64,000 nucleotides of DNA from Antedon mediterranea (Eukaryota; Animalia; Echinodermata). Every line of letters starts with the position of its first letter. Within the stretch, counting starts at the first letter, position 1. The stretch is from assembly GCF_964355755.1 (NCBI RefSeq), contig NC_092675.1, positions 13,424,812-13,488,811 of the forward strand. Reading direction: 5' to 3'. Positions 51,001-64,000 of this stretch are shown piece by piece. The notes beneath the pieces were generated by a model, which did no database searches, was not told the origin of the DNA, and worked only from the letters and a program-made list of their open reading frames with translations. The position numbers were made by a program, and so were the translations under genes.

Positions 51001-53755
51001 AAAACTTTTTCACACAAAACACCAAAGTGCTTAGAATAGCTTCAAATCGCATTTGGAGACCTTTTAGACCATTTTGTGATTTTTGAAAAAACTTGTTAAC
51101 ATAAAAACACCAAAGTGCTTAGAATAGCTTCAAATCACATTTGGAGACGTTTTAGACCATTTTGTGATTTTCGAAAAAACTTGTTAACATAAAAACACGA
51201 AAGTGCTTAGAATAGCTTCAAATCGCATTTGGAAACGTTTTAGACCATTTTGTGATTTTTGAAAAAACTTGTTAACATAAAAACACCAAAGTGCTTAGAA
51301 TAGCTTCAAATCACATTTGGAGACGTTTTAGACCATTTTGTGATTTTCGAAAAAACTTGTTAACATAAAAACACGAAAGTGCTTAGAATAGCTTCAAATC
51401 GCATTTGGAAACGTTTTAGACCATTTTGTGATTTTCGAAAAAACTTGTTAACATAAAAACACGAAAGTGCTTAGAATAGCTTCAAATCGCATTTGGAAAC
51501 GTTTTAGACCATTTTGTGATTTTCGAAAAAAATTGTTAACATAAAAACACCAAAGTGTTTAGAATAGCTTCAAATCGCATTTGGAGACGTTTTAGACCAA
51601 TTTGTGATTTTCGAAAAAACTTATCAACATAAAAACACCAAAGGGATTAGAATAGCTTCAAATCGCATTTGGAGACGTTTTAGACCATTTTGTGATTTTG
51701 AAAAAAATTGTTAACATAAAAACACCAAAGTGCTTAGAATAGCTTCAAATCGCATTTGGAGACGTTTTAGACCATTTTGTGATTTTCGAAAAAACTTGTT
51801 AACATAAAAACACCAAAGTGCTTAGAATAGCTTCAAATCGTATTTGGAGACGTTTTAGACTATTTTGAGATTTTCGAAAAAACTTGGTTACACAAAAACA
51901 TCAAAGTGCTTAAAATCACATTATAAACCGTTTTAGACCATTTTGAGCATTTCGATAACACTTTTCACACAAAAACATCAAAGAGCACAAAATAGCTTAA
52001 TATCGTATTTAAAAACGTTTTAGACCATTTTGAGCAATTCGACAAAACTTTTTCACACAAAACACCAAAGTGCTTAGAATAGCTTCAAATCGCATTTGGA
52101 GACGTTTTAGACCAATTTGTGCATTTCGATGAAACTTGATTACACAAAAACATCAAAGTGCTTAAAATCACATTATAAACCGTTTTAGACCATTTTGAGC
52201 ATTTCGATAACACTTTTCACACAAAAACATCAAAGAGCACAAAATAGCTTAATATCGTATTTAAAAACGTTTTAGACCATTTTGAGCATTTAGACAAAAC
52301 TTTTTCACACAAAACACCAAAGTGCTTAGAATAGCTTCAAATCGCATTTGGAGACGTTTTAGACCATTTTGTGCATTTCGATGAAACTTGGTTACACAAA
52401 AACATCAAAGTGCTTAAAATCACATTATAAATCGTTTTAGACCATTTTGAGCATTTCGACAAAACTTTTTCACACAAAATACCAAAGTGCTTAGAATAGC
52501 TTCAAATCGCATTTGGAGACGTTTTAGACCATTTTGTGATTTTCGAAAAAACTTTTTAACATAAAAACACCAAAGTGCTTAGAATAGCTTCAAATCACAT
52601 TTGGAGACGTTTTAGACCATAAGTGCTTAGAATCACATTATAAACCGTTTTAGACCATTTTGAGCATTTCGATAACAATTTTAACACAAAAACATCAAAG
52701 AGCACAAAATAGCTTAATATCGTATTTAAAAATGTTTTAGACCATTTTGAGCATTTAGATAAAACTTTTTCACACAAAACACCAAAGTGCTTAGAATAGC
52801 TTCAAATCGCATTTGGAGACGTTTTAGACCAATTTGTGATTTTTGAAAAAACTTGTTAACATAAAATCACCAAAGTGCTTAGAATAGCTTCAAATCACAT
52901 TTGGAGACGTTTTAGACCATTTTGTGATTTTGAACAAACTTGTTAACATAAAAACACCAAAGTGCTTAGAATAGCTTCAAATCGCATTTGGAGACGTTTT
53001 AGACCATTTTGTGATTTTCGAAAAAACTTGTTAACATAAAAACACGAAAGTGCTTAGAATAGCTTCAAATCGCATTTGGAAACGTTTTAGACCATTTTGT
53101 GATTTTCGAAAAAAATTGTTAACATAAAAACACCAAAGTGCTTAGAATCACATTATAAACCGTTTTAGACCATTTTGAGCATTTCGATAACAATTTTCAC
53201 ACAAAAACATCAAAGAGCACAAAATAGCTTAATATCGTATTTAAAAATGTTTTAGACCATTTTGAGCATTTAGATAAAACTTTTTCACACAAAACACCAA
53301 AGTGCTTAGAATAGCTTCAAATCGCATTTGGAGACGTTTTAGACCATTTTGTGATTTTTGAAAAAACTTGTTAACATAAAAACACCAAAGTGCTTAGAAT
53401 AGCTTCAAATCACATTTGGAGACGTTTTAGACCATTTTGTGATTTTCGAAAAAACTTTTTAACATAAAAACACCAAAGTGCTTAGAATAGCTTCAAATCA
53501 CATTTGGAGACGTTTTAGACCATTTTGTGATTTTTGAAAAAACTTGTTAACATAAAAACACGAAAGTGCTTAGAATAGCTTCAAATCGCATTTGGAAACG
53601 TTTTAGACCATTTTGTGATTTTCGAAAAAGATTGTTAACATAAAAACACCAAAGTGCTTAGAATCACATTATAAACCGTTTTAGACCATTTTGAGCATTT
53701 CGATAACAATTTTCACACAAAAACATCAAAGAGCACAAAATAGCTTAATATCGTA
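1..53755. repeat. Satellite DNA array (left arm), 88/87/78-bp monomer family with higher-order structure; continues beyond the window start
   Basis: The anchor GTTTTAGACCATTTTG recurs every 78-89 bp (e.g. TTTTAGACC starts at 450, 538 and 616, 703). The main 88-mer is TTTTAGACCATTTTGTGATTTTCGAAAAAACTTGTTAACATAAAAACACCAAAGTGCTTAGAATAGCTTCAAATCGCATTTGGAGACG. All copies are in the same orientation. Confidence 0.98.
53751..53755 (+). other. Target-site duplication, left copy (TCGTA)
   Basis: Left junction is TAATA-TCGTA|TGTAAC; right junction is GTAACA|TCGTA-TTTAAAAATG. Removing the element and one TCGTA restores the normal monomer AATATCGTATTTAAAAATG. Confidence 0.95.
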
Positions 53756-54028
53756 TGTAACTGCAGCCTACTTACAGGAGGCCCTCTAGAGCTCAGATAG
53801 ATAAAAAGTGATAAGAGAGAATAAGACATTTTTTATGACATAAAGTTTAGAGATAATCATTGTTAAAAGTATCTTTACCATAGGCTCCAATAAGGCTACA
53901 AGGTATTTATACATGGTTATTCATGTGATTGTAATTATAACTTATGACTTGTATTTTTAATTAGTTGAGTTTTACTTCATTGCTGAGAGCTAGCCCTAGG
54001 CCTTAGGGTACCATGTTCCCCGGCCCCA

Positions 54029-54035
54029 TGAGTCA
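54029..54035 (+). promoter_or_regulatory. AP-1/TRE-type motif TGAGTCA in the LTR, next to a GC-rich CCCCGGCCCC stretch
   Basis: Exact AP-1 consensus about 75 bp upstream of the candidate start at 54110. Motif match only; function is untested. Confidence 0.35.
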
Positions 54036-54109
54036 GACCTGTGCTTGTCTGCCTGTACGATGATGATATGATTAGGCCTACATTGTAATGCTAATCTTTG
54101 TTTTATTAT

Positions 54110-54118
54110 AGTTTTCAC
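54110..54118 (+). other. Candidate self-primer segment in the LTR (AGTTTTCAC); copy in the 3' LTR at 60732-60740
   Basis: Exact reverse complement of 54247-54255, lying upstream of the LTR poly(A) signal. Confidence 0.6.
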
Positions 54119-54224
54119 GGTGTTTATTCAAGTTGCTAATGATACTGTAATTTGTAGAGATACAAGAGATAGTTCAGAGAATAAATAAAGGAACATCAGT
54201 ATCTACAAAATTTGTAATTTATTT

Positions 54225-57200
54225 ATGATGGACGCCTACGGTAACAGTGAAAACTTTGCTGATGAAAACTCAATGAATCTAAGAGAACAGAGTGAGAGAC
54301 GCCCTACAGCTAAGGCCCTGTCAATTAGCATTGCTACTGAAGTAAAGCTGTTGACTCAAACTCAGAGAAAGGCTCAAGAAGCATCAAGTGAACTAGAAGA
54401 TGTTCCAAGCGACGAATTTGAGATACAAACTGCATTATGCAAAGCTAAAGCTGCATTAAAGGAATATAGTGATGCTTGGTGCGTATTGAATAAATTGTAT
54501 GCACAAGATAGAGATGGTATTCATCGCAAAGATCACCTGGAGAATGAGAACATATATCTCACCATTACCAACTCCATCCAAGCTAGTATAACAAGCGCTA
54601 TGGATAGGGCACATGCATTAGCCCTGGAGTGTCAAGCCTCAAAATCTGCAGCATCAAGGAGTTCATGTCGATCTATTGTTAGCATTAAAGCTCAAGCTGT
54701 GGCGAATGCTGCTGCAGCCAACAAAACTGCTCAATTTGCTGAAAAAATGGCTAAACAGAAAGCAGACCTTACAGCAAAGGAAGCGGAAATGGAAATTAAG
54801 AAAGCAGAAGCAAGGCTTGAAGAAATAAGGCGGGAAGCACAGCAAAGAACAGAACATGCCAAAGCTGAAGCAGAGTTCAAAGTTTTAGAGGCTAAACAAG
54901 CTGCAGCTGTAGAGAATGCACGAGTTGATGCAATTCAACAGGAAATTCAGAACGGATATGGAGAAATTATGACCACCCCACACCAAACCTCAAATGATCA
55001 TGCACTAAGGTTTCGCAACCTAACCAAACCTCAACCTCTAATGACACAGACACAAGCAACAACAGCCCAATCGACAATGCCTCAAAATCAATCTAGCAGT
55101 ACCACAGACTTAAACGCTTTAGCAGAAGCCTTTTCTTCAGCCTTCAGTATGAACCGCATACCAGCACCAGAGCCACCAATATTTGATGGCGATCCTCTTA
55201 AGTACTATGATTGGAACGCATCCTTTAGATGTTTAATCGAAAATAAAGGAATTTCTAAGGAAGACAGAATTCACTACCTTAAGAGATACATAGGAGGCCC
55301 AGCAAAGGAAGTTGTCAGTGGATACTTTCTGCTACAAGGTGAACATGCTTATGAAAACGCTAAAGCAGTTTTAGAAAAAAGATATGGAAATCCATTTATA
55401 GTTTCCGAAGCATTTAGAGACAAATTAGACAGCTGGCCAAGGATTCAAGCAAGAGATTACAATGGCCTTAGGCGACTCTCTGACTTTCTGAACCAATGCA
55501 ACATAGCAATGAGAGAAATGAAAGGCTTGGAAGTTCTTAATGACAGCAGAGAAAACCGGAAAATTCTTCAAAAATTACCAGATTGGTTAGTGAATAGATG
55601 GCGAAGAAACGCAGTGAGCGCTATGCAAATCAAGGGTAGTTATCCAACATTCAATGACTTTTCCACATTTTTGACGACCGAAGCTGAAATTGTTTGCGAT
55701 CCTGTTACCTTAATACCAGAAAATGAAACAAAATTCACAGAGAAAAGTTCAAGATATCGAAACCAATCTCAAACGCTAGCCACCAGTATCAGTGGAATGC
55801 CATCATGCTTCATGTGTAAAATGAATAACCATCACCTAATTGACTGCAGAGCGTTTGCCAGAAAACCCGATACCGAAAAACAGCAATACATCAAGCAAAA
55901 TGGTCTATGTTTCAGCTGCTTACAACATGGCCATGTGTCAAGGAACTGTAACCAGAAAAGTATTTGTAAAATTTGCCAAAGGAGACATCCAACAAGTCTC
56001 CATGTAAAGGAGAGAGATCCGGCTAACGAGATTGACGCCGCGACACAGCCGAATGTTGACGCTAAGTCTGAAGTAGTACAATCAGTAAAGACTTCAAATG
56101 TAAAGGAGAGAGATCAGGCTAACGAGATTGACGCCGAGACTCGGCTGAATGGTGACGCTAAGTCTGAAGTGGTAAAATCAGTAAAGACTTCAAACTGCAA
56201 AAATGTCCGCAGAAACACAAACAACACAATGTCTTCAATGATAGTTCCCGTCTGGATATCCAATGAACATAAACCTGAAAAGGAACATCTTGTATATGCC
56301 CTATTAGACACACAATCCGACACAACCTTTGTGCTAGAAGATACTGCAAACCAAATTGGTGCAAGTTGCGAACCAGCAACACTAAGATTGACTACGATGA
56401 CGTCTAAAAGGGAAGTCGTATCTTGCAAGAAGTATAACAACCTAATGATTAGAGGTTTCTTTGAAGAAACAAAAATTCAGCTACCAACGGCATATACTAG
56501 AGAATACATACCAGTTGACCAATCACATATTCCTACACCCGAAAAGACGAGATGTTATGCTCATCTACAAAGGATAAGTCAACAGATACCATCTAGACAA
56601 AACTGTGAAATAGGGTTGCTTATTGGGTATAACGTTCCACAGGCTCTGGCACCCATAGACCATATTTCAGGAAATGGAAATGAACCATTCGCTATCAAAA
56701 CTCAATTGGGTTGGAGTGTTGTAGGAGGAGGAGCTGAGACATCTTATGTTCCTCAAGATAAAATCGGTCACAGTCATAGAGTAATGGTGAAGGAAATTCC
56801 AAACGATCTACACTTAACGTACGAATCTAATTTGAAATCGGAACCAACCAAAGAAGTTCACTATGTCTTAAAAACAGCTGTTAAAGAAATAGTTACTCCA
56901 TTAGATGCAATAAGAGCCTTGGAGTACGACTTCACGGAGAAAGTTACAAGAGACACAGTTCTCTCTCAAGAAGACATGCAGTTTATGGATACTCTAAAAA
57001 AGGAAGTCCATATCAATGAAGACCGACATATCGAAATGCCATTACCCTTTAAAAAGAGGCCAGTATTACCGAATAACAGAATTTGTGTACTGCATCGATT
57101 GAACCACCTAAAACGACGTTTCCTGACGAATGAGAAGTACTTTGAAGATTATCAAAAATTTATGACAGAAATACTTCAAAATGGAGATGCCGAGAAAGTA

Positions 57201-60200
57201 CCAGCAAATGAAATACAAAAAGAGCCAGCATGGTACATACCTCATCACGGAATTTACCACCCTAAGAAACCCACCAAAATTCGTGTTGTCTTTGACTGCT
57301 CCGCTAACTACAAAGGTACAGCCTTGAATCAACATCTTCTTACTGGACCAGACCTAAACAACACACTCATAGGTGTACTATGCAGATTTAGACAAGAACC
57401 CATAGCCATAATGTGTGATATAGAGAGGATGTTTCACCAGTTTCATGTTAACCAGAATGACAGAAACTATCTACGCTTCTTGTGGTGGGAAGATGGAAAT
57501 CTCGAAAGGCAACCCATAGATTACAGAATGAAGGTCCACTTGTTTGGAGCCGCTTCCTCACCAGGTTGCTCTAATTTCGGACTAAAATACATGGCGGAAC
57601 ACTTTGCCGAACAACACAAACCAGAGACAGTTAACTTCATTAAGAACAACTTTTATGTAGACGATGGTCTAAAGAGCGTAGAAACTGTACCTGAAGCAGT
57701 TGAATTAATAGAAGATGCCAGAAAACTGTGTGCAAAGGGCTCACTTAGACTACATAAATTTATTTCCAACCAACGAGACGTTATGTCTACCATCCCAAAA
57801 TCAGAACAGGCTAAAGGAACCGTAGATCGAGACCTATCATTCGAAGACTTACCAGTTGAAAGGGCCCTTGGAATACAATGGTGCGTCGAGTCAGATAACT
57901 TTCAATTTAGAATCACCATGAAAGACACTCCATTGACACGCCGAGGAATTCTATCCACTGTAGCATCAATTTTCGACCCACTTGGACTTCTTGCCCCATT
58001 TACACTCAAGGGTAAGCAAATACTGCAAGAAGTGTGCAAGGAGGGAACAGACTGGGACGAAAAACTTTCCGAGGAGCTTCGTCCAAAATGGGAGAAATGG
58101 AGATTAGACCTTCCAAAGCTTGCCACCATTACGATTAATAGGTGCTTCAAACCAAAAGATTTCCAACAAAGAAAGGTCGAATTTCATCACTTTTCCGACG
58201 CAAGTAATTCTGGTTATGGGCAGTGCTCGTATATAAGACTTGAAAATGACTTCTCTGAGATTCACTGTGCGCTGATAATGGCAAAGGCCCGAGTGGCACC
58301 CAAAAAGGTTGTTAGTATTCCAAGATTAGAGCTACAAGCCGCGGTGTTGTCAACAAAAGTCAGTACCATTCTATATCAAGAACTAGAATATAAAAATTCA
58401 GCACACTACTTCTGGACTGACTCGAAGGTAGTACTTGGTTATGTCAGAAACGAAGCCAGACGTTTCCATGTGTACGTAGCTAATCGCGTCCAACGCATTA
58501 GAGATACCACAAATCCTGAACAATGGAACTACATATCTACGAATGAGAATCCAGCCGACCATGCTTCAAGAGGTCTTGGAGCAAAGGACTTACAGACATC
58601 CAACTGGTTTCAAGGACCAAAACTCCTTTGGAAATGCGGAAATATAGTGGAAAATAATCAAAAATTTGACGTATCTTCCAACGATCCGGAAGTAAACCAA
58701 GCTAGCGTGCTTGCGATAAATTCCACTGAAGAAAATTGCTTGCTAAATCGTGTAGAACGTTTTTCCGATTATAAGAGAGCAGTTACAGGAGTTGCCGCTC
58801 TTAAGAAATTCATCAAAACAAGAAAAACCAAAAATCATTATACCATTACCTCTGTAGAAGACAGAATCGAAGCTGAAAAGACCATCATCAAAATGGTCCA
58901 ACATAAGTTCTTCAAAAAAGACATCGACCAACTCTACAAGCAATCTTCCAAGTGCACAGGCAATCTTGCGAAGTTAGACCCGTACATAGATGTTGACGGA
59001 TTACTGCGAGTTGGTGGTCGCCTGAAACGAGCCACCTCTCTAGATATGGGTGTTAAACATCCTGCAATATTGCCAAAAAGAAGCCATGTAACACATTTAA
59101 TAATTAAACACTACCATGAGAAAACAGCCCATCAAGGAAGAGGCTTTACGACCAATGCAGTTAGATCCAATGGATTTTGGATAGTTGGAATAAGTTCAGC
59201 TGTATCAAGCCATATCTACAAGTGTGTTCAATGCAGAAAATTACGTGGGCGTAATCAAGACCAAAAAATGGCAAACTTACCAAATGAAAGATTGGAACCA
59301 ACCCCTCCGTTTACATATACTGGGTTTGACTGTTTTGGACCATTTTTGGTTAAGGAGGGAAGAAGAGAATTAAAAAGGTATGGATTGTTATTCACATGTA
59401 TGGCATCAAGAGCCATTCATATAGAGATGCTCGACGACATGACAACAGACGCCTTTATCAACGCTCTTAGATGCTTCATTGCTATACGTGGCAATGTTCG
59501 TCAATTTCGTTGTGATCAAGGCAGTAACTTTATGGGAGCACAACATGAGCTCACAAAGGCCTTTAAGGAGATTAAAGAAGATAAGGTGCGAAAGTTCCTA
59601 GCAGATCAAAACTGTAACTTCTTTTCTAATGTTCCTTCCGCCAGTCATATGGGAGGCATTTGGGAAAGACAAATAAGAACAATCCGTAACGTTCTCTATT
59701 CCATTCTTAATCAATACAAGTCAAGATTAGATAGCACGTCTCTCCGTACATTCCTGTACGAAACGATGGCTATCGTCAATAGTAGACCTCTAACAACCGA
59801 AAATCTAAATGATCCACATGGACCCGAAGCCTTAACTCCGAACCAGCTACTCACAATGAAATCGAAAATCGTTTTTCCACCGCCTGGGTTCTTTGTCAAG
59901 GAAGACGTATATGCATTAAGAAGATGGCGTCGAGTTCAGTTTCTGGCCAATGAATTTTGGTCAAGATGGAAAAAGGAATATTTGACCAACCTTCAATCGA
60001 GAGCTAAGTGGAACCAAGTACGCCGAAACCTTGAGATAGGAGACATAGTACTACTAAAAGAAGAACATTTGATACGCGGAGACTGGAAATTGGCCAGAAT
60101 ATCTGAATTAATGCCAAGTGAGGACGGACTAGTGAGAAAAGTTAGGTTAATTGTTGCAGACACAAATATCGATAATGATGGAAAACGGTTGAAACGCGCA

Positions 60201-60260
60201 ACATATTTGGAAAGGCCAATTCATAAACTAACCTTGATTTTAGAAAATACAAACTGTTAA
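54225..60260 (+). CDS. BEL/Pao gag-pol polyprotein, 2011 aa (true start may be the ATG at 54273)
   Basis: Uninterrupted ORF. Ala/Glu/Lys-rich coiled-coil-like N-terminus; Gag core starting PAPEPPIFDGD (DUF1759-like, ~55155); knuckles CFMC..H....C, CFSC....H....C and CKIC...H....H (55806-56003); aspartic protease ALLDTQS (D at 56307); RT FYVDD (57654); RNase H FSDAS (58197), RLELQAA and FWTDS; integrase HHCC plus D(59328), D(59514), E(59664); C-terminal RWRRVQ..FWSRW..EYL and RPIHKL (DUF5641-like). Confidence 0.96.
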   Translation: MMDAYGNSENFADENSMNLREQSERRPTAKALSISIATEVKLLTQTQRKAQEASSELEDVPSDEFEIQTALCKAKAALKEYSDAWCVLNKLYAQDRDGIHRKDHLENENIYLTITNSIQASITSAMDRAHALALECQASKSAASRSSCRSIVSIKAQAVANAAAANKTAQFAEKMAKQKADLTAKEAEMEIKKAEARLEEIRREAQQRTEHAKAEAEFKVLEAKQAAAVENARVDAIQQEIQNGYGEIMTTPHQTSNDHALRFRNLTKPQPLMTQTQATTAQSTMPQNQSSSTTDLNALAEAFSSAFSMNRIPAPEPPIFDGDPLKYYDWNASFRCLIENKGISKEDRIHYLKRYIGGPAKEVVSGYFLLQGEHAYENAKAVLEKRYGNPFIVSEAFRDKLDSWPRIQARDYNGLRRLSDFLNQCNIAMREMKGLEVLNDSRENRKILQKLPDWLVNRWRRNAVSAMQIKGSYPTFNDFSTFLTTEAEIVCDPVTLIPENETKFTEKSSRYRNQSQTLATSISGMPSCFMCKMNNHHLIDCRAFARKPDTEKQQYIKQNGLCFSCLQHGHVSRNCNQKSICKICQRRHPTSLHVKERDPANEIDAATQPNVDAKSEVVQSVKTSNVKERDQANEIDAETRLNGDAKSEVVKSVKTSNCKNVRRNTNNTMSSMIVPVWISNEHKPEKEHLVYALLDTQSDTTFVLEDTANQIGASCEPATLRLTTMTSKREVVSCKKYNNLMIRGFFEETKIQLPTAYTREYIPVDQSHIPTPEKTRCYAHLQRISQQIPSRQNCEIGLLIGYNVPQALAPIDHISGNGNEPFAIKTQLGWSVVGGGAETSYVPQDKIGHSHRVMVKEIPNDLHLTYESNLKSEPTKEVHYVLKTAVKEIVTPLDAIRALEYDFTEKVTRDTVLSQEDMQFMDTLKKEVHINEDRHIEMPLPFKKRPVLPNNRICVLHRLNHLKRRFLTNEKYFEDYQKFMTEILQNGDAEKVPANEIQKEPAWYIPHHGIYHPKKPTKIRVVFDCSANYKGTALNQHLLTGPDLNNTLIGVLCRFRQEPIAIMCDIERMFHQFHVNQNDRNYLRFLWWEDGNLERQPIDYRMKVHLFGAASSPGCSNFGLKYMAEHFAEQHKPETVNFIKNNFYVDDGLKSVETVPEAVELIEDARKLCAKGSLRLHKFISNQRDVMSTIPKSEQAKGTVDRDLSFEDLPVERALGIQWCVESDNFQFRITMKDTPLTRRGILSTVASIFDPLGLLAPFTLKGKQILQEVCKEGTDWDEKLSEELRPKWEKWRLDLPKLATITINRCFKPKDFQQRKVEFHHFSDASNSGYGQCSYIRLENDFSEIHCALIMAKARVAPKKVVSIPRLELQAAVLSTKVSTILYQELEYKNSAHYFWTDSKVVLGYVRNEARRFHVYVANRVQRIRDTTNPEQWNYISTNENPADHASRGLGAKDLQTSNWFQGPKLLWKCGNIVENNQKFDVSSNDPEVNQASVLAINSTEENCLLNRVERFSDYKRAVTGVAALKKFIKTRKTKNHYTITSVEDRIEAEKTIIKMVQHKFFKKDIDQLYKQSSKCTGNLAKLDPYIDVDGLLRVGGRLKRATSLDMGVKHPAILPKRSHVTHLIIKHYHEKTAHQGRGFTTNAVRSNGFWIVGISSAVSSHIYKCVQCRKLRGRNQDQKMANLPNERLEPTPPFTYTGFDCFGPFLVKEGRRELKRYGLLFTCMASRAIHIEMLDDMTTDAFINALRCFIAIRGNVRQFRCDQGSNFMGAQHELTKAFKEIKEDKVRKFLADQNCNFFSNVPSASHMGGIWERQIRTIRNVLYSILNQYKSRLDSTSLRTFLYETMAIVNSRPLTTENLNDPHGPEALTPNQLLTMKSKIVFPPPGFFVKEDVYALRRWRRVQFLANEFWSRWKKEYLTNLQSRAKWNQVRRNLEIGDIVLLKEEHLIRGDWKLARISELMPSEDGLVRKVRLIVADTNIDNDGKRLKRATYLERPIHKLTLILENTNC
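54247..54255 (+). other. Non-canonical primer-binding site (GTGAAAACT)
   Basis: Occupies the PBS position directly after the LTR-terminal CA. It lacks the TGG needed to pair with a tRNA CCA end and is complementary to 54110-54118. Confidence 0.6.
56002..56193 (+). repeat. In-frame 96-bp tandem duplication (2 x 32 aa) between the Gag knuckles and the protease
   Basis: ATGTAAAGGAGAGAGATC starts at 56002 and 56098. I count 8 mismatches in 96 bp. Protein: VKERDPANEIDAATQPNVDAKSEVVQSVKTSN / VKERDQANEIDAETRLNGDAKSEVVKSVKTSN. Confidence 0.95.
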
Positions 60261-60368: not shown

Positions 60369-60377
60369 GGGTGGGAG
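60369..60377 (+). other. Polypurine tract (GGGTGGGAG)
   Basis: G-rich tract abutting the TG of the 3' LTR, the position expected for plus-strand priming. Confidence 0.85.
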
Positions 60378-60868
60378 TGTAACTGCAGCCTACTTACAGG
60401 AGGCCCTCTAGAGCTCAGATAGATAAAAAGTGATAAGAGAGAATAAGACATTTTTTATGACATAAAGTTTAGAGATAATCATTGTTAAAAGTATCTTTAC
60501 CATAGGCTCCAATAAGGCTACAAGGTATTTATACATGGTTATTCATGTGATTGTAATTATAACTTATGACTTGTATTTTTAATTAGTTGAGTTTTACTTC
60601 ATTGCTGAGAGCTAGCCCTAGGCCTTAGGGTACCATGTTCCCCGGCCCCATGAGTCAGACCTGTGCTTGTCTGCCTGTACGATGATGATATGATTAGGCC
60701 TACATTGTAATGCTAATCTTTGTTTTATTATAGTTTTCACGGTGTTTATTCAAGTTGCTAATGATACTGTAATTTGTAGAGATACAAGAGATAGTTCAGA
60801 GAATAAATAAAGGAACATCAGTATCTACAAAATTTGTAATTTATTTATGATGGACGCCTACGGTAACA
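60378..60868 (+). repeat. 3' LTR (491 bp)
   Basis: No difference from the 5' LTR found on a by-eye comparison (offset 6622). Confidence 0.97.
60802..60811 (+). terminator. Overlapping AATAAA poly(A) signals (AATAAATAAA) in the 3' LTR; copy at 54180-54189
   Basis: Two overlapping AATAAA hexamers about 60 nt before the LTR end, followed by T/GT-rich sequence (TTTGTAATTTATTT). Confidence 0.7.
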
Positions 60869-60873
60869 TCGTA
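60869..60873 (+). other. Target-site duplication, right copy (TCGTA)
   Basis: Matches 53751-53755. Confidence 0.95.
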
Positions 60874-63800
60874 TTTAAAAATGTTTTAGACCATTTTGAG
60901 CATTTAGATAAAACTTTTTCACACAAAACACCAAAGTGCTTAGAATAGCTTCAAATCGCATTTGGAGACGGTTTAGACCATTTTGTGATTTTGAAAAAAC
61001 TTGTTAACATAAAAACACCAAAGTGCTTAGAATAGCTTCAAATCGCATTTGGAGACGTTTTAGACCATTTTGTGATTTTCGAAAAAACTTGTTAACATAA
61101 AAACACCAAAGGGCTTAGAATAGCTTCAAATCGTATTTGGAGACGTTTTAGACCATTTTGAGATTTTCGAAAAAACTTGGTTACACAAAAACATCAAAGT
61201 GCTTAAAATCACATTATAAACCGTTTTAGACCATTTTGAGCATTTCGATAACACTTTCACACAAAAACATCAAAGAGCACAAAATAGCTTAATATCGTAT
61301 TTAAAAACGTTTTAGACCATTTTGAGCATTTCGACAAAACTTTTTCACACAAAACACCAAAGTGCTTAGAATAGCTTCAAATCGCATTTGGAGACGTTTT
61401 AGACCAATTTGTGCATTTCGATGAAACTTGATTACACAAAAACTTCAAAGTGCTTAAAATCACATTATAAACCGTTTTAGACCATTTTGAGCATTTCGAT
61501 AACACTTTTCACACAAAAACATCAAAGAGCACAAAATAGCTTAATATCGTATTTAAAAACGTTTTAGACCATTTTGAGCATTTAGACAAAACTTTTTCAC
61601 ACAAAACACCAAAGTGCTTAGAATAGCTTCAAATCGCATTTGGAGACGTTTTAGACCATTTTGTGCATTTCGAAGGAACTTGGTTACACAAAAACATCAA
61701 AGTGCTTAAAATCACATTATAAATCGTTTTAGACCATTTTGAGCATTTCGACAAAACTTTTTCACACAAAATACAAAAGTGCTTAGAATAGCTTCAAATC
61801 GCATTTGGAGACGTTTTAGACCATTTTGTGATTTTCGAAAAAACTTTTTAACATAAAAACACCAAAGTGCTTAGAATAGCTTCAAATCACATTTGGAGAC
61901 GTTTTAGACCATTTTGTGATTTTCGAAAAAACTTGTTAACATAAAAACACGAAAGTGCTTAGAATAGCTTCAAATCGCATTTGGAGACGTTTTAGACCAT
62001 TTTGTGATTTTTGAAAAAACTTGTTAACATAAAAACACCAAAGTGCTTAGAATAGCTTCAAATCACATTTGGAGATGTTTTAGACCATTTTGTGATTTTT
62101 GAAAAAACTTGTTAACATAAAAACACGAAAGTGCTTAGAATAGCTTCAAATCACATTTGGAGACGTTTTAGACCTTTTTGTGATTTTTGAAAAAACTTGT
62201 TAACATAAAAACACGAAAGTGCTTAGAATAGCTTCAAATCGCATTTGGAAACGTTTTAGACCATTTTGTGATTTTCGAAAAAGATTGTTAACATAAAAAC
62301 ACCAATGTGCTTAGAATCACATTATAAACCGTTTTAGACCATTTTGAGCATTTCGATAACAATTTTCACACAAAAACATCAAAGAGCACAAAATAGCTTA
62401 ATATCGTATTTATAAATGTTTTAGACCATTTTGAGCATTTCGACAAAACTTTTTCACACAAAACACCAAAGTGCTTAGAATAGCTTCAAATCGCATTTGG
62501 AGACGTTTTTTTATACCATTTTGTGATTTCGATGAAACTTGATTACACAAAAACATCAAAGTGCTTAAAATCACATTATAAACCGTTTTAGACCATTTTG
62601 AGCATTTCGATAACACTTTTCACACAAAAACATCAAAGAGCACAAAATAGCTTAATATCGTATTTAAAAACGTTTTAGACCATTTTGAGCTTTTAGACAA
62701 AACTTTTTCACACAAAACACCAAAGTGCTTAGAATAGCTTCAAATCGCATTTGGAGACGTTTTAGAACATTTTGTGTTTTTCGAAAAAAACTGTTAACAT
62801 AAAAACACCAAAGTGCTTAGAATAGCTTCAAATCGCATTTGGAGACGTTTTAGAACATTTTGTGTTCTTCGAAAAAACCTGTTAACATAAAAACACCAAA
62901 GTGCTTAGAATAGCTTCAAATCGCATTTGGAGACGTTTTAGACCATTTTGTGATTTTTGAAAAAACCTGTTAACATAAAAACACCAAAGTGCTTAGAATA
63001 GCTTCAAATCACATTTGGAGACGTTTTAGACCATTTTGTGATTTTCGAAAAAACTTGTTAACATAAAAACACGAAAGTGCTTAGAATAGCTTCAAATCGC
63101 ATTTGGAAACGTTTTAGACCATTTTGTGATTTTCGAAAAAAATTGTTAACATAAAAACACCAAAGTGCTTAGAATCACAATATAAACCGTTTTAGACCAT
63201 TTTGAGCATTTCGATAACAATTTTCACACAAAAACATCAAAGAGCACAAAATAGCTTAATATCGTATTTAAAAATGTTTTAGACCATTTTGAGCATTTAG
63301 ATAAAACTTTTTCACACAAAACACCAAAGTGCTTAGAATAGCTTCAAATCGCATTTGGAGACGGTTTAGACCATTTTGTGATTTTGAAAAAACTTGTTAA
63401 CATAAAAACACCAAAGTGCTTAGAATAGCTTCAAATCGCATTTGGAGACGTTTTAGACCATTTTGTGATTTTCGAAAAAACTTGTTAACATAAAAACACC
63501 AAAGTGCTTAGAATAGCTTCAAATCGTATTTGGAGACGTTTTAGACCATCTTGAGATTTTCGAAAAAACTTGGTTACACAAAAACATCAAAGTGCTTAAA
63601 ATCACATTATAAACCGTTTTAGACCATTTTGAACATTTCGATAACACTTTTCACACAAAAACATCAAAGAGCACAAAATAGCTTAATATCGTATTTAAAA
63701 ACGTTTTAGACCATTTTGAGCATTTCGACAAAACTTTTTCACACAAAAACATCAAAGAGCACAAAATAGCTTAATATCGTATTTAAAAACGTTTTAGACC

Positions 63801-64000
63801 ATTTTGAGCATTTAGACAAAACTTTTTCACACAAAACACCAAAGTGCTTAGAATAGCTTCAAATCGCATTTGGAGACGTTTTAGACCATTTTGTGCATTT
63901 CGATGAAACTTGGTTACACAAAAACATCAAAGTGCTTAAAATCACATTATAAATCGTTTTAGACCCTTTTGAGCATTTCGACAAAACTTTTTCACACAAA
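60869..64000. repeat. Satellite DNA array (right arm), same family and orientation; continues beyond the window end
   Basis: Resumes in exact register within the interrupted 87-bp monomer and shows the same monomer types. Confidence 0.98.

Follow-up and report, generated by a model that had tools for sequence, protein, structure and literature searches.

We report a BEL/Pao retrotransposon whose own spliced 5' leader is the likely primer of its reverse transcription, in the manner of Tf1 and with the primer built by splicing, in place of a host tRNA. It lies in the 64-kb window (by which we mean the whole stretch of DNA that was analyzed). No tRNA primer site follows its 5' LTR, and a GT-AG intron lies inside that LTR. 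The exon junction formed by removal of the intron is complementary to the bases that adjoin the LTR; among relatives, this complementarity is maintained by covariation, and the pairing stops at the LTR end. BEL/Pao elements have been described as tRNA-primed and as poorly understood in their replication (PMC8742986).

Results

The element is complete and young, with two identical LTRs, and it is inserted within an array of 88-bp satellite repeats (Table 1). Its gag-pol frame matched Pfam families PF05380, PF03564, and PF18701, with a weak match to PF17921, and contains three Cys-His boxes followed by protease (DTQS), reverse transcriptase (RT; YVDD at 57654-57665), RNase H, and integrase. The D-E-D-D motifs of RNase H lie at 58185-58568, and the protease, RT, RNase H, and integrase motifs are all intact. 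The Pao-type gag-pol, the domain order PR-RT-RH-IN, LTRs within 0.2-1.2 kb, a polypurine tract, and a target site duplication (TSD) identify the element as BEL/Pao, and its domain order, single frame, three Cys-His boxes, 5-bp TSD, and LTR size are also those of canonical Belpaoviridae (BEL, Pao, and Tas). Among the best 120 of 5600 protein matches, identity was 56-64% over the RT-RNase H region, and the named proteins were mostly from fish, with some from echinoderms and a hemichordate. This range resembles that given for Sinbad-like elements, which we treat as a lead only.

Around the element, the window (1-53750 and 60874-64000) is a long satellite array of ~88-bp monomers with a higher-order unit of roughly 252 bp; it is possibly centromeric. 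Within the frame, an in-frame tandem duplication of 96 bp occupies 56002-56194, between the Cys-His boxes and protease. No tRNA gene was found in the 64-kb window, no Rfam match at E<=1 was obtained over 53700-54500, and there is no clear TATA box in the window's LTR.

Table 1. Positions of the element's features in the window
Feature	Positions	Strand	Remarks
TSD TCGTA, left copy	53751..53755	+	within 88-bp satellite
5' LTR, 491 nt	53756..54246	+	TG...CA; same sequence as 3' LTR
End of LTR exon 1 (AAG), 5' part of predicted primer	53900..53902	+	pairs with post-LTR positions 8-10
GT-AG intron inside LTR, 209 nt	53903..54111	+	GTATTT ... T-rich tract, TAG; contig joint 53902/54112
Branch-point-like CTAAT	54091..54095	+	from sequence; putative function
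Start of exon 2 (TTTTCAC), 3' part of predicted primer	54112..54118	+	C54118 is the predicted 3'-OH; putative cut at 54118/G54119
Predicted minus-strand strong-stop template, 128 nt	54119..54246	+	rest of R plus U5; putative role
Poly(A) signal AATAAA	54180..54185	+	downstream of predicted primer end
Single gag-pol frame, 2023 codons	54225..60260	+	first ATG within LTR
Predicted primer-binding site GTGAAAACTT	54247..54256	+	adjoins LTR; no TGG; 10-nt complement of spliced junction
Polypurine tract GGGTGGGAG	60369..60377	+	adjoins 3' LTR
3' LTR	60378..60868	+	same intron present; putatively unspliced
TSD TCGTA, right copy	60869..60873	+	

A sequence-only reading of this DNA had pointed out that no TGG follows the 5' LTR and that the first 9 nt after it pair with 54110-54118, and both observations hold. 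The bases 3' of the LTR are GTGAAAACTTTG, and the first nine are the exact complement of 54110-54118, which is the sole 9-nt match in the LTR. The chance of such a match had been put at ~0.3%; in 20,000 dinucleotide shuffles of the LTR, it arose in 0.225% at offset 0 and in 1.1% at offsets 0-3, in keeping with a real match. Of the internal 9-mers, 23/6122 had a complement in the LTR.

Other parts of that reading had to be revised. It had proposed that TAGTT, where the complement begins, was initiator-like and could mark the start of R, so that the first nucleotides of the RNA would serve as a Tf1-style primer. The letters are present, but we reject them as an initiator, as they form the 3' splice site of a 209-nt intron, the acceptor of a joint seen in sequencing-run contigs; for splicing to occur, the transcript must therefore start upstream of 53902. 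The predicted primer is instead the exon 1/exon 2 junction. The joint 53902/54112 is exact, has GT..AG ends, and occurs in contigs of public runs X1, X2, and X4, all from one sample (S1). The intron starts at AAG/GTATTT and ends with CTAAT (branch-point-like by the consensus), a T-rich tract, and TAG/TT. In the spliced form, AAG joined to TTTTCAC is a 10-nt complement of the post-LTR sequence. Of the nine unspliced bases, the first two belong to the intron (its AG) and happen to be the same as those that end exon 1. The gain from splicing in the window is one base pair only (9 to 10). In the window, and in most of the relatives with a poly(A) signal, that signal is located downstream of the primer end. 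An extension of the helix by pairing of TGTT (54121-54124) with the terminal AACA had also been suggested; it can form in the window element but is not conserved, being present at 1/28 junctions, and was rejected.

The library type of runs X1, X2, X4, and X5 is not on record, and none of the six runs listed is recorded as RNA. X1, X2, and X4 look like DNA: their depth is flat and stepped, the satellite is covered very deeply, contigs break at each end of the LTR, and a junction with the flank is seen at 54246. The joint therefore probably reflects intron-less genomic LTR copies and not splicing directly. If the runs are DNA, such copies are what reverse transcription of spliced RNA would be expected to leave behind. 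Under this reading, the intron-less form accounts for ~42% of LTR depth in sample S1 (X1, X2, and X4), and the intron is therefore not required. Depth in X1 was 442 for the joint versus 609 for the intron-bearing form. At the LTR start, it was 763, below the ~1050 that the DNA reading predicts, and the joint depth matches that of the LTR-to-gag contig (436), as an RNA reading would also predict. If X1, X2, and X4 are RNA, the joint is a direct sign of splicing. Depth steps in exon 1 gave no consistent position for the transcript start. Run X5 (sample S2), guessed to be RNA yet containing flank junctions, showed no joint, and its LTR assembled as one 491-nt contig. The presence of the intron-less form in S1, while it was not seen in S2 (X5), is possibly due to recent, polymorphic intron loss.

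Two other features of the runs deserve mention. All four contain a derivative in which gag is kept and pol replaced, its sequence departing from that of the element at 56032 and returning to it at 60244. It outweighs the pol-bearing form (depth of 460 versus 142 in X1 and 72 versus 4-13 in X5) and is likely a non-autonomous partner that has kept the LTR and primer site. All four also have A, not T, at 54257 (post-LTR position 11), just beyond the 10-bp helix; by eye, this A would allow four extra pairs with exon 1 past a 2-nt bulge.

Relatives were collected by a metagenome scan, in which at least 611 stretches were confirmed; the best 80 gave 60 loci. We set aside 22 loci without a 5' LTR/internal junction and 11 extra copies of families already counted (L004, L007, L011, L015, L018, L019, L020, L025, L039, L042, and L047), and the 27 loci analyzed made, with the window, a set of 28. 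LTR ends were set by repeat boundaries in 4/28 and by the junction motif in 24/28, where they were hand-picked from candidates, some after the match had been seen. In all 28, the internal region starts with GT, and TGG is absent from the 5 nt around the junction. RT identity among loci was 48-84%, with the exception of one within-family pair at 95%. L001 grouped with zebrafish and medaka proteins in a quick tree that is poorly resolved at depth and was used for spread only. A scan of viral contigs gave 11 pattern matches, none of them a relative.

The spliced complement was defined by a simple rule that allowed one join, from any GT to a YAG at least 45 nt downstream. Under this rule, 20/28 loci had a perfect spliced complement of 10-14 nt, to which exon 2 contributes 5-7 nt and exon 1 contributes 3-8 nt. 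Seven of the eight misses were contigs with only part of the LTR; among loci with a readable LTR (window included), 20/21 had a junction-spanning complement of 10-14 nt. The one remaining miss, L028, has a complete 333-nt LTR that is intron-less and carries a ready-made 14-bp complement with one bulge. As controls, 8/400 cross pairs (mostly between similar motifs) and 1/460 internal CA/GT decoys had such a complement. When the bases facing exon 1 were shuffled, the observed length was reached in <5% of trials for 11/20 loci, while shuffled tails equaled it in 19% of trials for the window and in 32-41% for three other loci. We also chose splice sites by crude scores that ignore the post-LTR bases, although the scores were written after the data had been seen. 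The acceptor then matched the primer end in 16/21 loci, and this acceptor combined with the top donor gave at least 10 nt in 7/21 versus 0/400 cross pairs. L001 and L056 each have two workable candidate sites.

Several loci add detail on LTR structure. L012 (3814-5514) has a 1.7-kb LTR in which a predicted 1321-nt intron splits a 12-nt complement. L017 (5996-6600) and L060 (5769-6200) have 3' LTRs with a clear donor and acceptor, on contigs without the 5' junction. Two types of polypurine tract occur across loci L003-L060, GGTGGGAG, which adjoins the LTR, and GGGGAGCCA, which is separated from TG by a 3-nt spacer. Thirteen loci with a 3' LTR only were checked for a following junction, which yielded one motif-like site and no complement.

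Covariation between the post-LTR bases and an LTR-internal complement, the check proposed in the sequence-only reading, is present. The 20 positives make up 19 distinct pairs and 15 distinct post-LTR 10-mers, cross-pair controls are low, and 2-4 Watson-Crick pair types occur at each of positions 3-10. As the loci had been chosen for pairing, the weight of this result rests on the variety of pairs and on the cross control. Comparisons of close pairs show changes on both sides of the helix: between L024 and L022 (75% RT identity), position 7 is changed in both the site and exon 1; between L024 and L027, there is a two-sided change at position 11; and between the window and L006, there is one at position 5, on the exon 2 side. 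L018 has an LTR copy that lacks the intron, as does L022 (its 3' LTR); these carry the predicted junctions, with 11-nt complements kept.

The register of the helix is constant as well. Pairing ends at the LTR's terminal CA/TA in all positives, and the base opposite the LTR's last A is G in 16, A in 2, and C in 1 of the 19 distinct pairs. As T is never found there, the helix does not continue past the LTR boundary in any of the 19, in agreement with the earlier claim that the complement ends where the 3'-OH of a primer must sit. The first ATG of the window's frame is inside the LTR, which makes the primer site coding (54225-54260), and in L040 (1582-1593), the start codon of gag is itself part of the primer site; the helix could thus have a second role as a switch for translation.

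In folding predictions, the isolated duplex was more stable spliced than unspliced in 20/20 cases, by 2.1-13.7 kcal/mol, and the gain for the window (-13.0 spliced versus -10.7 unspliced) was among the smallest. In whole-leader folds, the helix reached a probability of 0.8 in 14/20 cases with a 20-nt exon-1 stub and in 6/20 with a 60-nt stub. The window's helix was predicted only with stubs of <=20 nt, in a manner dependent on the 3' cut-off, and had a probability of 0.00 with stubs of >=30 nt. This weak fold may mean either that exon 1 is short, that nucleocapsid protein drives annealing, or that the model fails for this copy.

Discussion

We propose that transcription would begin in the 5' LTR, upstream of 53902, and that the cap-proximal intron would be spliced out. 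The junction would then anneal to 54247-54256 of the same RNA or of a co-packaged RNA, probably with help from the Cys-His boxes of Gag, and RT/RNase H would cleave after C54118, as Tf1 RT does after its self-primer. With extension from C54118, the first DNA base would copy the LTR's terminal A, and the resulting 128-nt strong-stop DNA would transfer to the 3' LTR via the shared stretch from 54119 to the poly(A) site. All sequence upstream of the cut, including the intron, would be copied from the 3' LTR. That copy of the LTR would have no nearby cap or upstream acceptor and would be mostly unspliced in genomic RNAs, and the full-length primer would form on the 5' copy only. The cap favors splicing of the first intron, and the 3' copy is without an upstream exon boundary.

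Because the intron would be recopied from the unspliced 3' LTR, it would survive retrotransposition, which would account for its persistence in the LTR; full-length strong-stop copying of a spliced leader would erase it. Intron-less LTRs would arise by occasional splicing of the 3' copy or when RT reads through a template that has not been cut. As copies without the intron exist (L018, L022, L028, and the host's S1 form), the element can do without it and sometimes loses it, and splicing need not be an obligatory switch.

Alternatively, the junction helix may be regulatory, acting as a translation/packaging switch or in control of the 5' poly(A) signal, with another molecule serving as the primer. 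Consistent with this, codons 8-11 of the frame in the window and, in L040, the gag ATG fall within the helix, and in the foamy virus LTR, a donor upstream of the poly(A) signal matters, according to the available text of PMC3694450. A regulatory helix would have no need to start at the first post-LTR base and stop there, yet this is true in every distinct pair, and no other primer site is visible; we therefore consider this explanation unlikely.

A second alternative, which we regard as very unlikely, is that the RNA starts at ~54110 and that its unspliced first 9 nt are a Tf1-type primer. A 9-nt unspliced complement is found in the window and in 14/28 loci, and the helix in the window is predicted most readily when the 5' leader is very short. 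Folding of the unspliced RNA from starts at 54100-54111 gave the 9-bp helix a probability of 0.01-0.31. The site, however, is the splice acceptor used in a real contig joint. Moreover, relatives with an exon-2 part of 5-6 nt match, when unspliced, over only 5-7 nt, and the remainder precedes a GT donor that is 171-426 nt upstream. The 9-nt unspliced matches come from loci with AG, or a similar base pair, at the end of exon 1.

It is more doubtful still that a half tRNA or other host RNA fragment primes the element, as in copia-type elements. The anticodon loop of one tRNA-Glu(UUC) type presumably has the same eight letters as window positions 54111-54118, which a text search of the literature did not confirm. 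Priming by half tRNAs is known from Ty1/copia lineages, as described in the available text of PMC6317226. A single host RNA cannot match 15 post-LTR 10-mers, each of which is complemented by the junction of its own LTR and only rarely by that of another, nor would it account for the covariation. The least probable explanation is uncut self-priming, in which RT starts at a 2'-OH at or near the G after the helix to give a retron-like branched RNA-DNA molecule: retron branching occurs at a G, and G follows the helix in 16 of the 19 distinct pairs, but it is not invariant, and Tf1 is a precedent for cleavage in an LTR element.

Priming by the element's own spliced leader, which we favor, has its closest parallels among known self-priming elements. 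Tf1/sushi and Tcn1 have been described as self-priming, and the TAR lineage of copia has been predicted to be so, in the available text of these sources (PMC6317226, PMC5341516, PMC3601003, PMC6934838, PMC5443660). In Tf1, the first 11 bases pair with the site, and RNase H cuts between bases 11 and 12 (PMC7175516, available text). As in the window element, a tRNA site is lacking in Tf1/Tf2 of Schizosaccharomyces pombe, Tf1/sushi, and the Tcn1 chromoviruses (Ty3/gypsy), and an LTR-derived segment of ~11 nt pairs with the LTR-abutting bases; in these elements, RT/RNase H is thought to free the 3'-OH (PMC7175516, PMC6317226, PMC5341516, available text). In the window element, the LTR-derived complement is likewise at least 10 nt long (10 nt when spliced; 20/21 loci), and the RNase H motifs are intact. 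The window element differs from this group in being BEL/Pao by its Pfam families and not a Ty3/gypsy chromovirus. Its complement is split by a spliceosomal intron, is noncontiguous in the DNA, and is probably not the RNA's first 11 nt. No conserved R-U5 stem beside the helix was found in the element set. The element would thus work like Tf1 self-priming, yet outside the Tf1 group. For the TAR lineage of Ty1/copia (Houba and Osr-1), the prediction of self-priming was also based on a complement in the LTR, of 10 nt or longer; that lineage belongs to another superfamily and its complement is contiguous, and the blastn rule used would miss split complements (PMC6317226, available text).

According to the ICTV profile, Belpaoviridae are primed by host tRNA, with an 18-nt site to which tRNA-Arg or tRNA-Gly binds (PMC8742986). 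The window element, in contrast, has no tRNA-Arg/tRNA-Gly site, and TGG is absent from within 5 nt of the LTR throughout the set (0/28 junctions). As the family is delimited by sequence, the missing tRNA site is a departure from its description and not grounds for exclusion. Foamy viruses are tRNA-primed. Their LTR also has a splice donor upstream of the poly(A) signal, which controls polyadenylation, but not a complete intron that builds a primer, in the available text of PMC3694450. Penelope-like elements also keep introns through retrotransposition and have been proposed to self-prime, but they are non-LTR elements with other enzymes, and their intron is not part of a primer (PMC3846280, available text). 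The available main text of the Sinbad, de la Chaux, and mollusc BEL/Pao surveys makes no mention of a primer-binding site or tRNA (PMC554778, PMC3118150, PMC6238403). Within the freely accessible literature searched, much of it available as partial text, we found no paper on BEL/Pao self-priming or on a primer built by splicing.

If our interpretation is correct, self-priming would have arisen one more time among LTR elements, in a branch of BEL/Pao, and reverse transcription would be started in a new way, by a primer that splicing puts together. This would explain both why an intron persists in the LTR and why primer-site finders return empty results for these elements, and it would give a simple annotation rule for their LTR ends. 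It is quite possible, and we advance it tentatively, that in a widespread aquatic BEL/Pao lineage, fish included, the spliceosome builds the primer for RT. Splicing would then mark the cap-proximal LTR as the only good primer and tie replication to the splicing state of the host, and the intron would perpetuate itself, as the spliced junction leaves with the primer.
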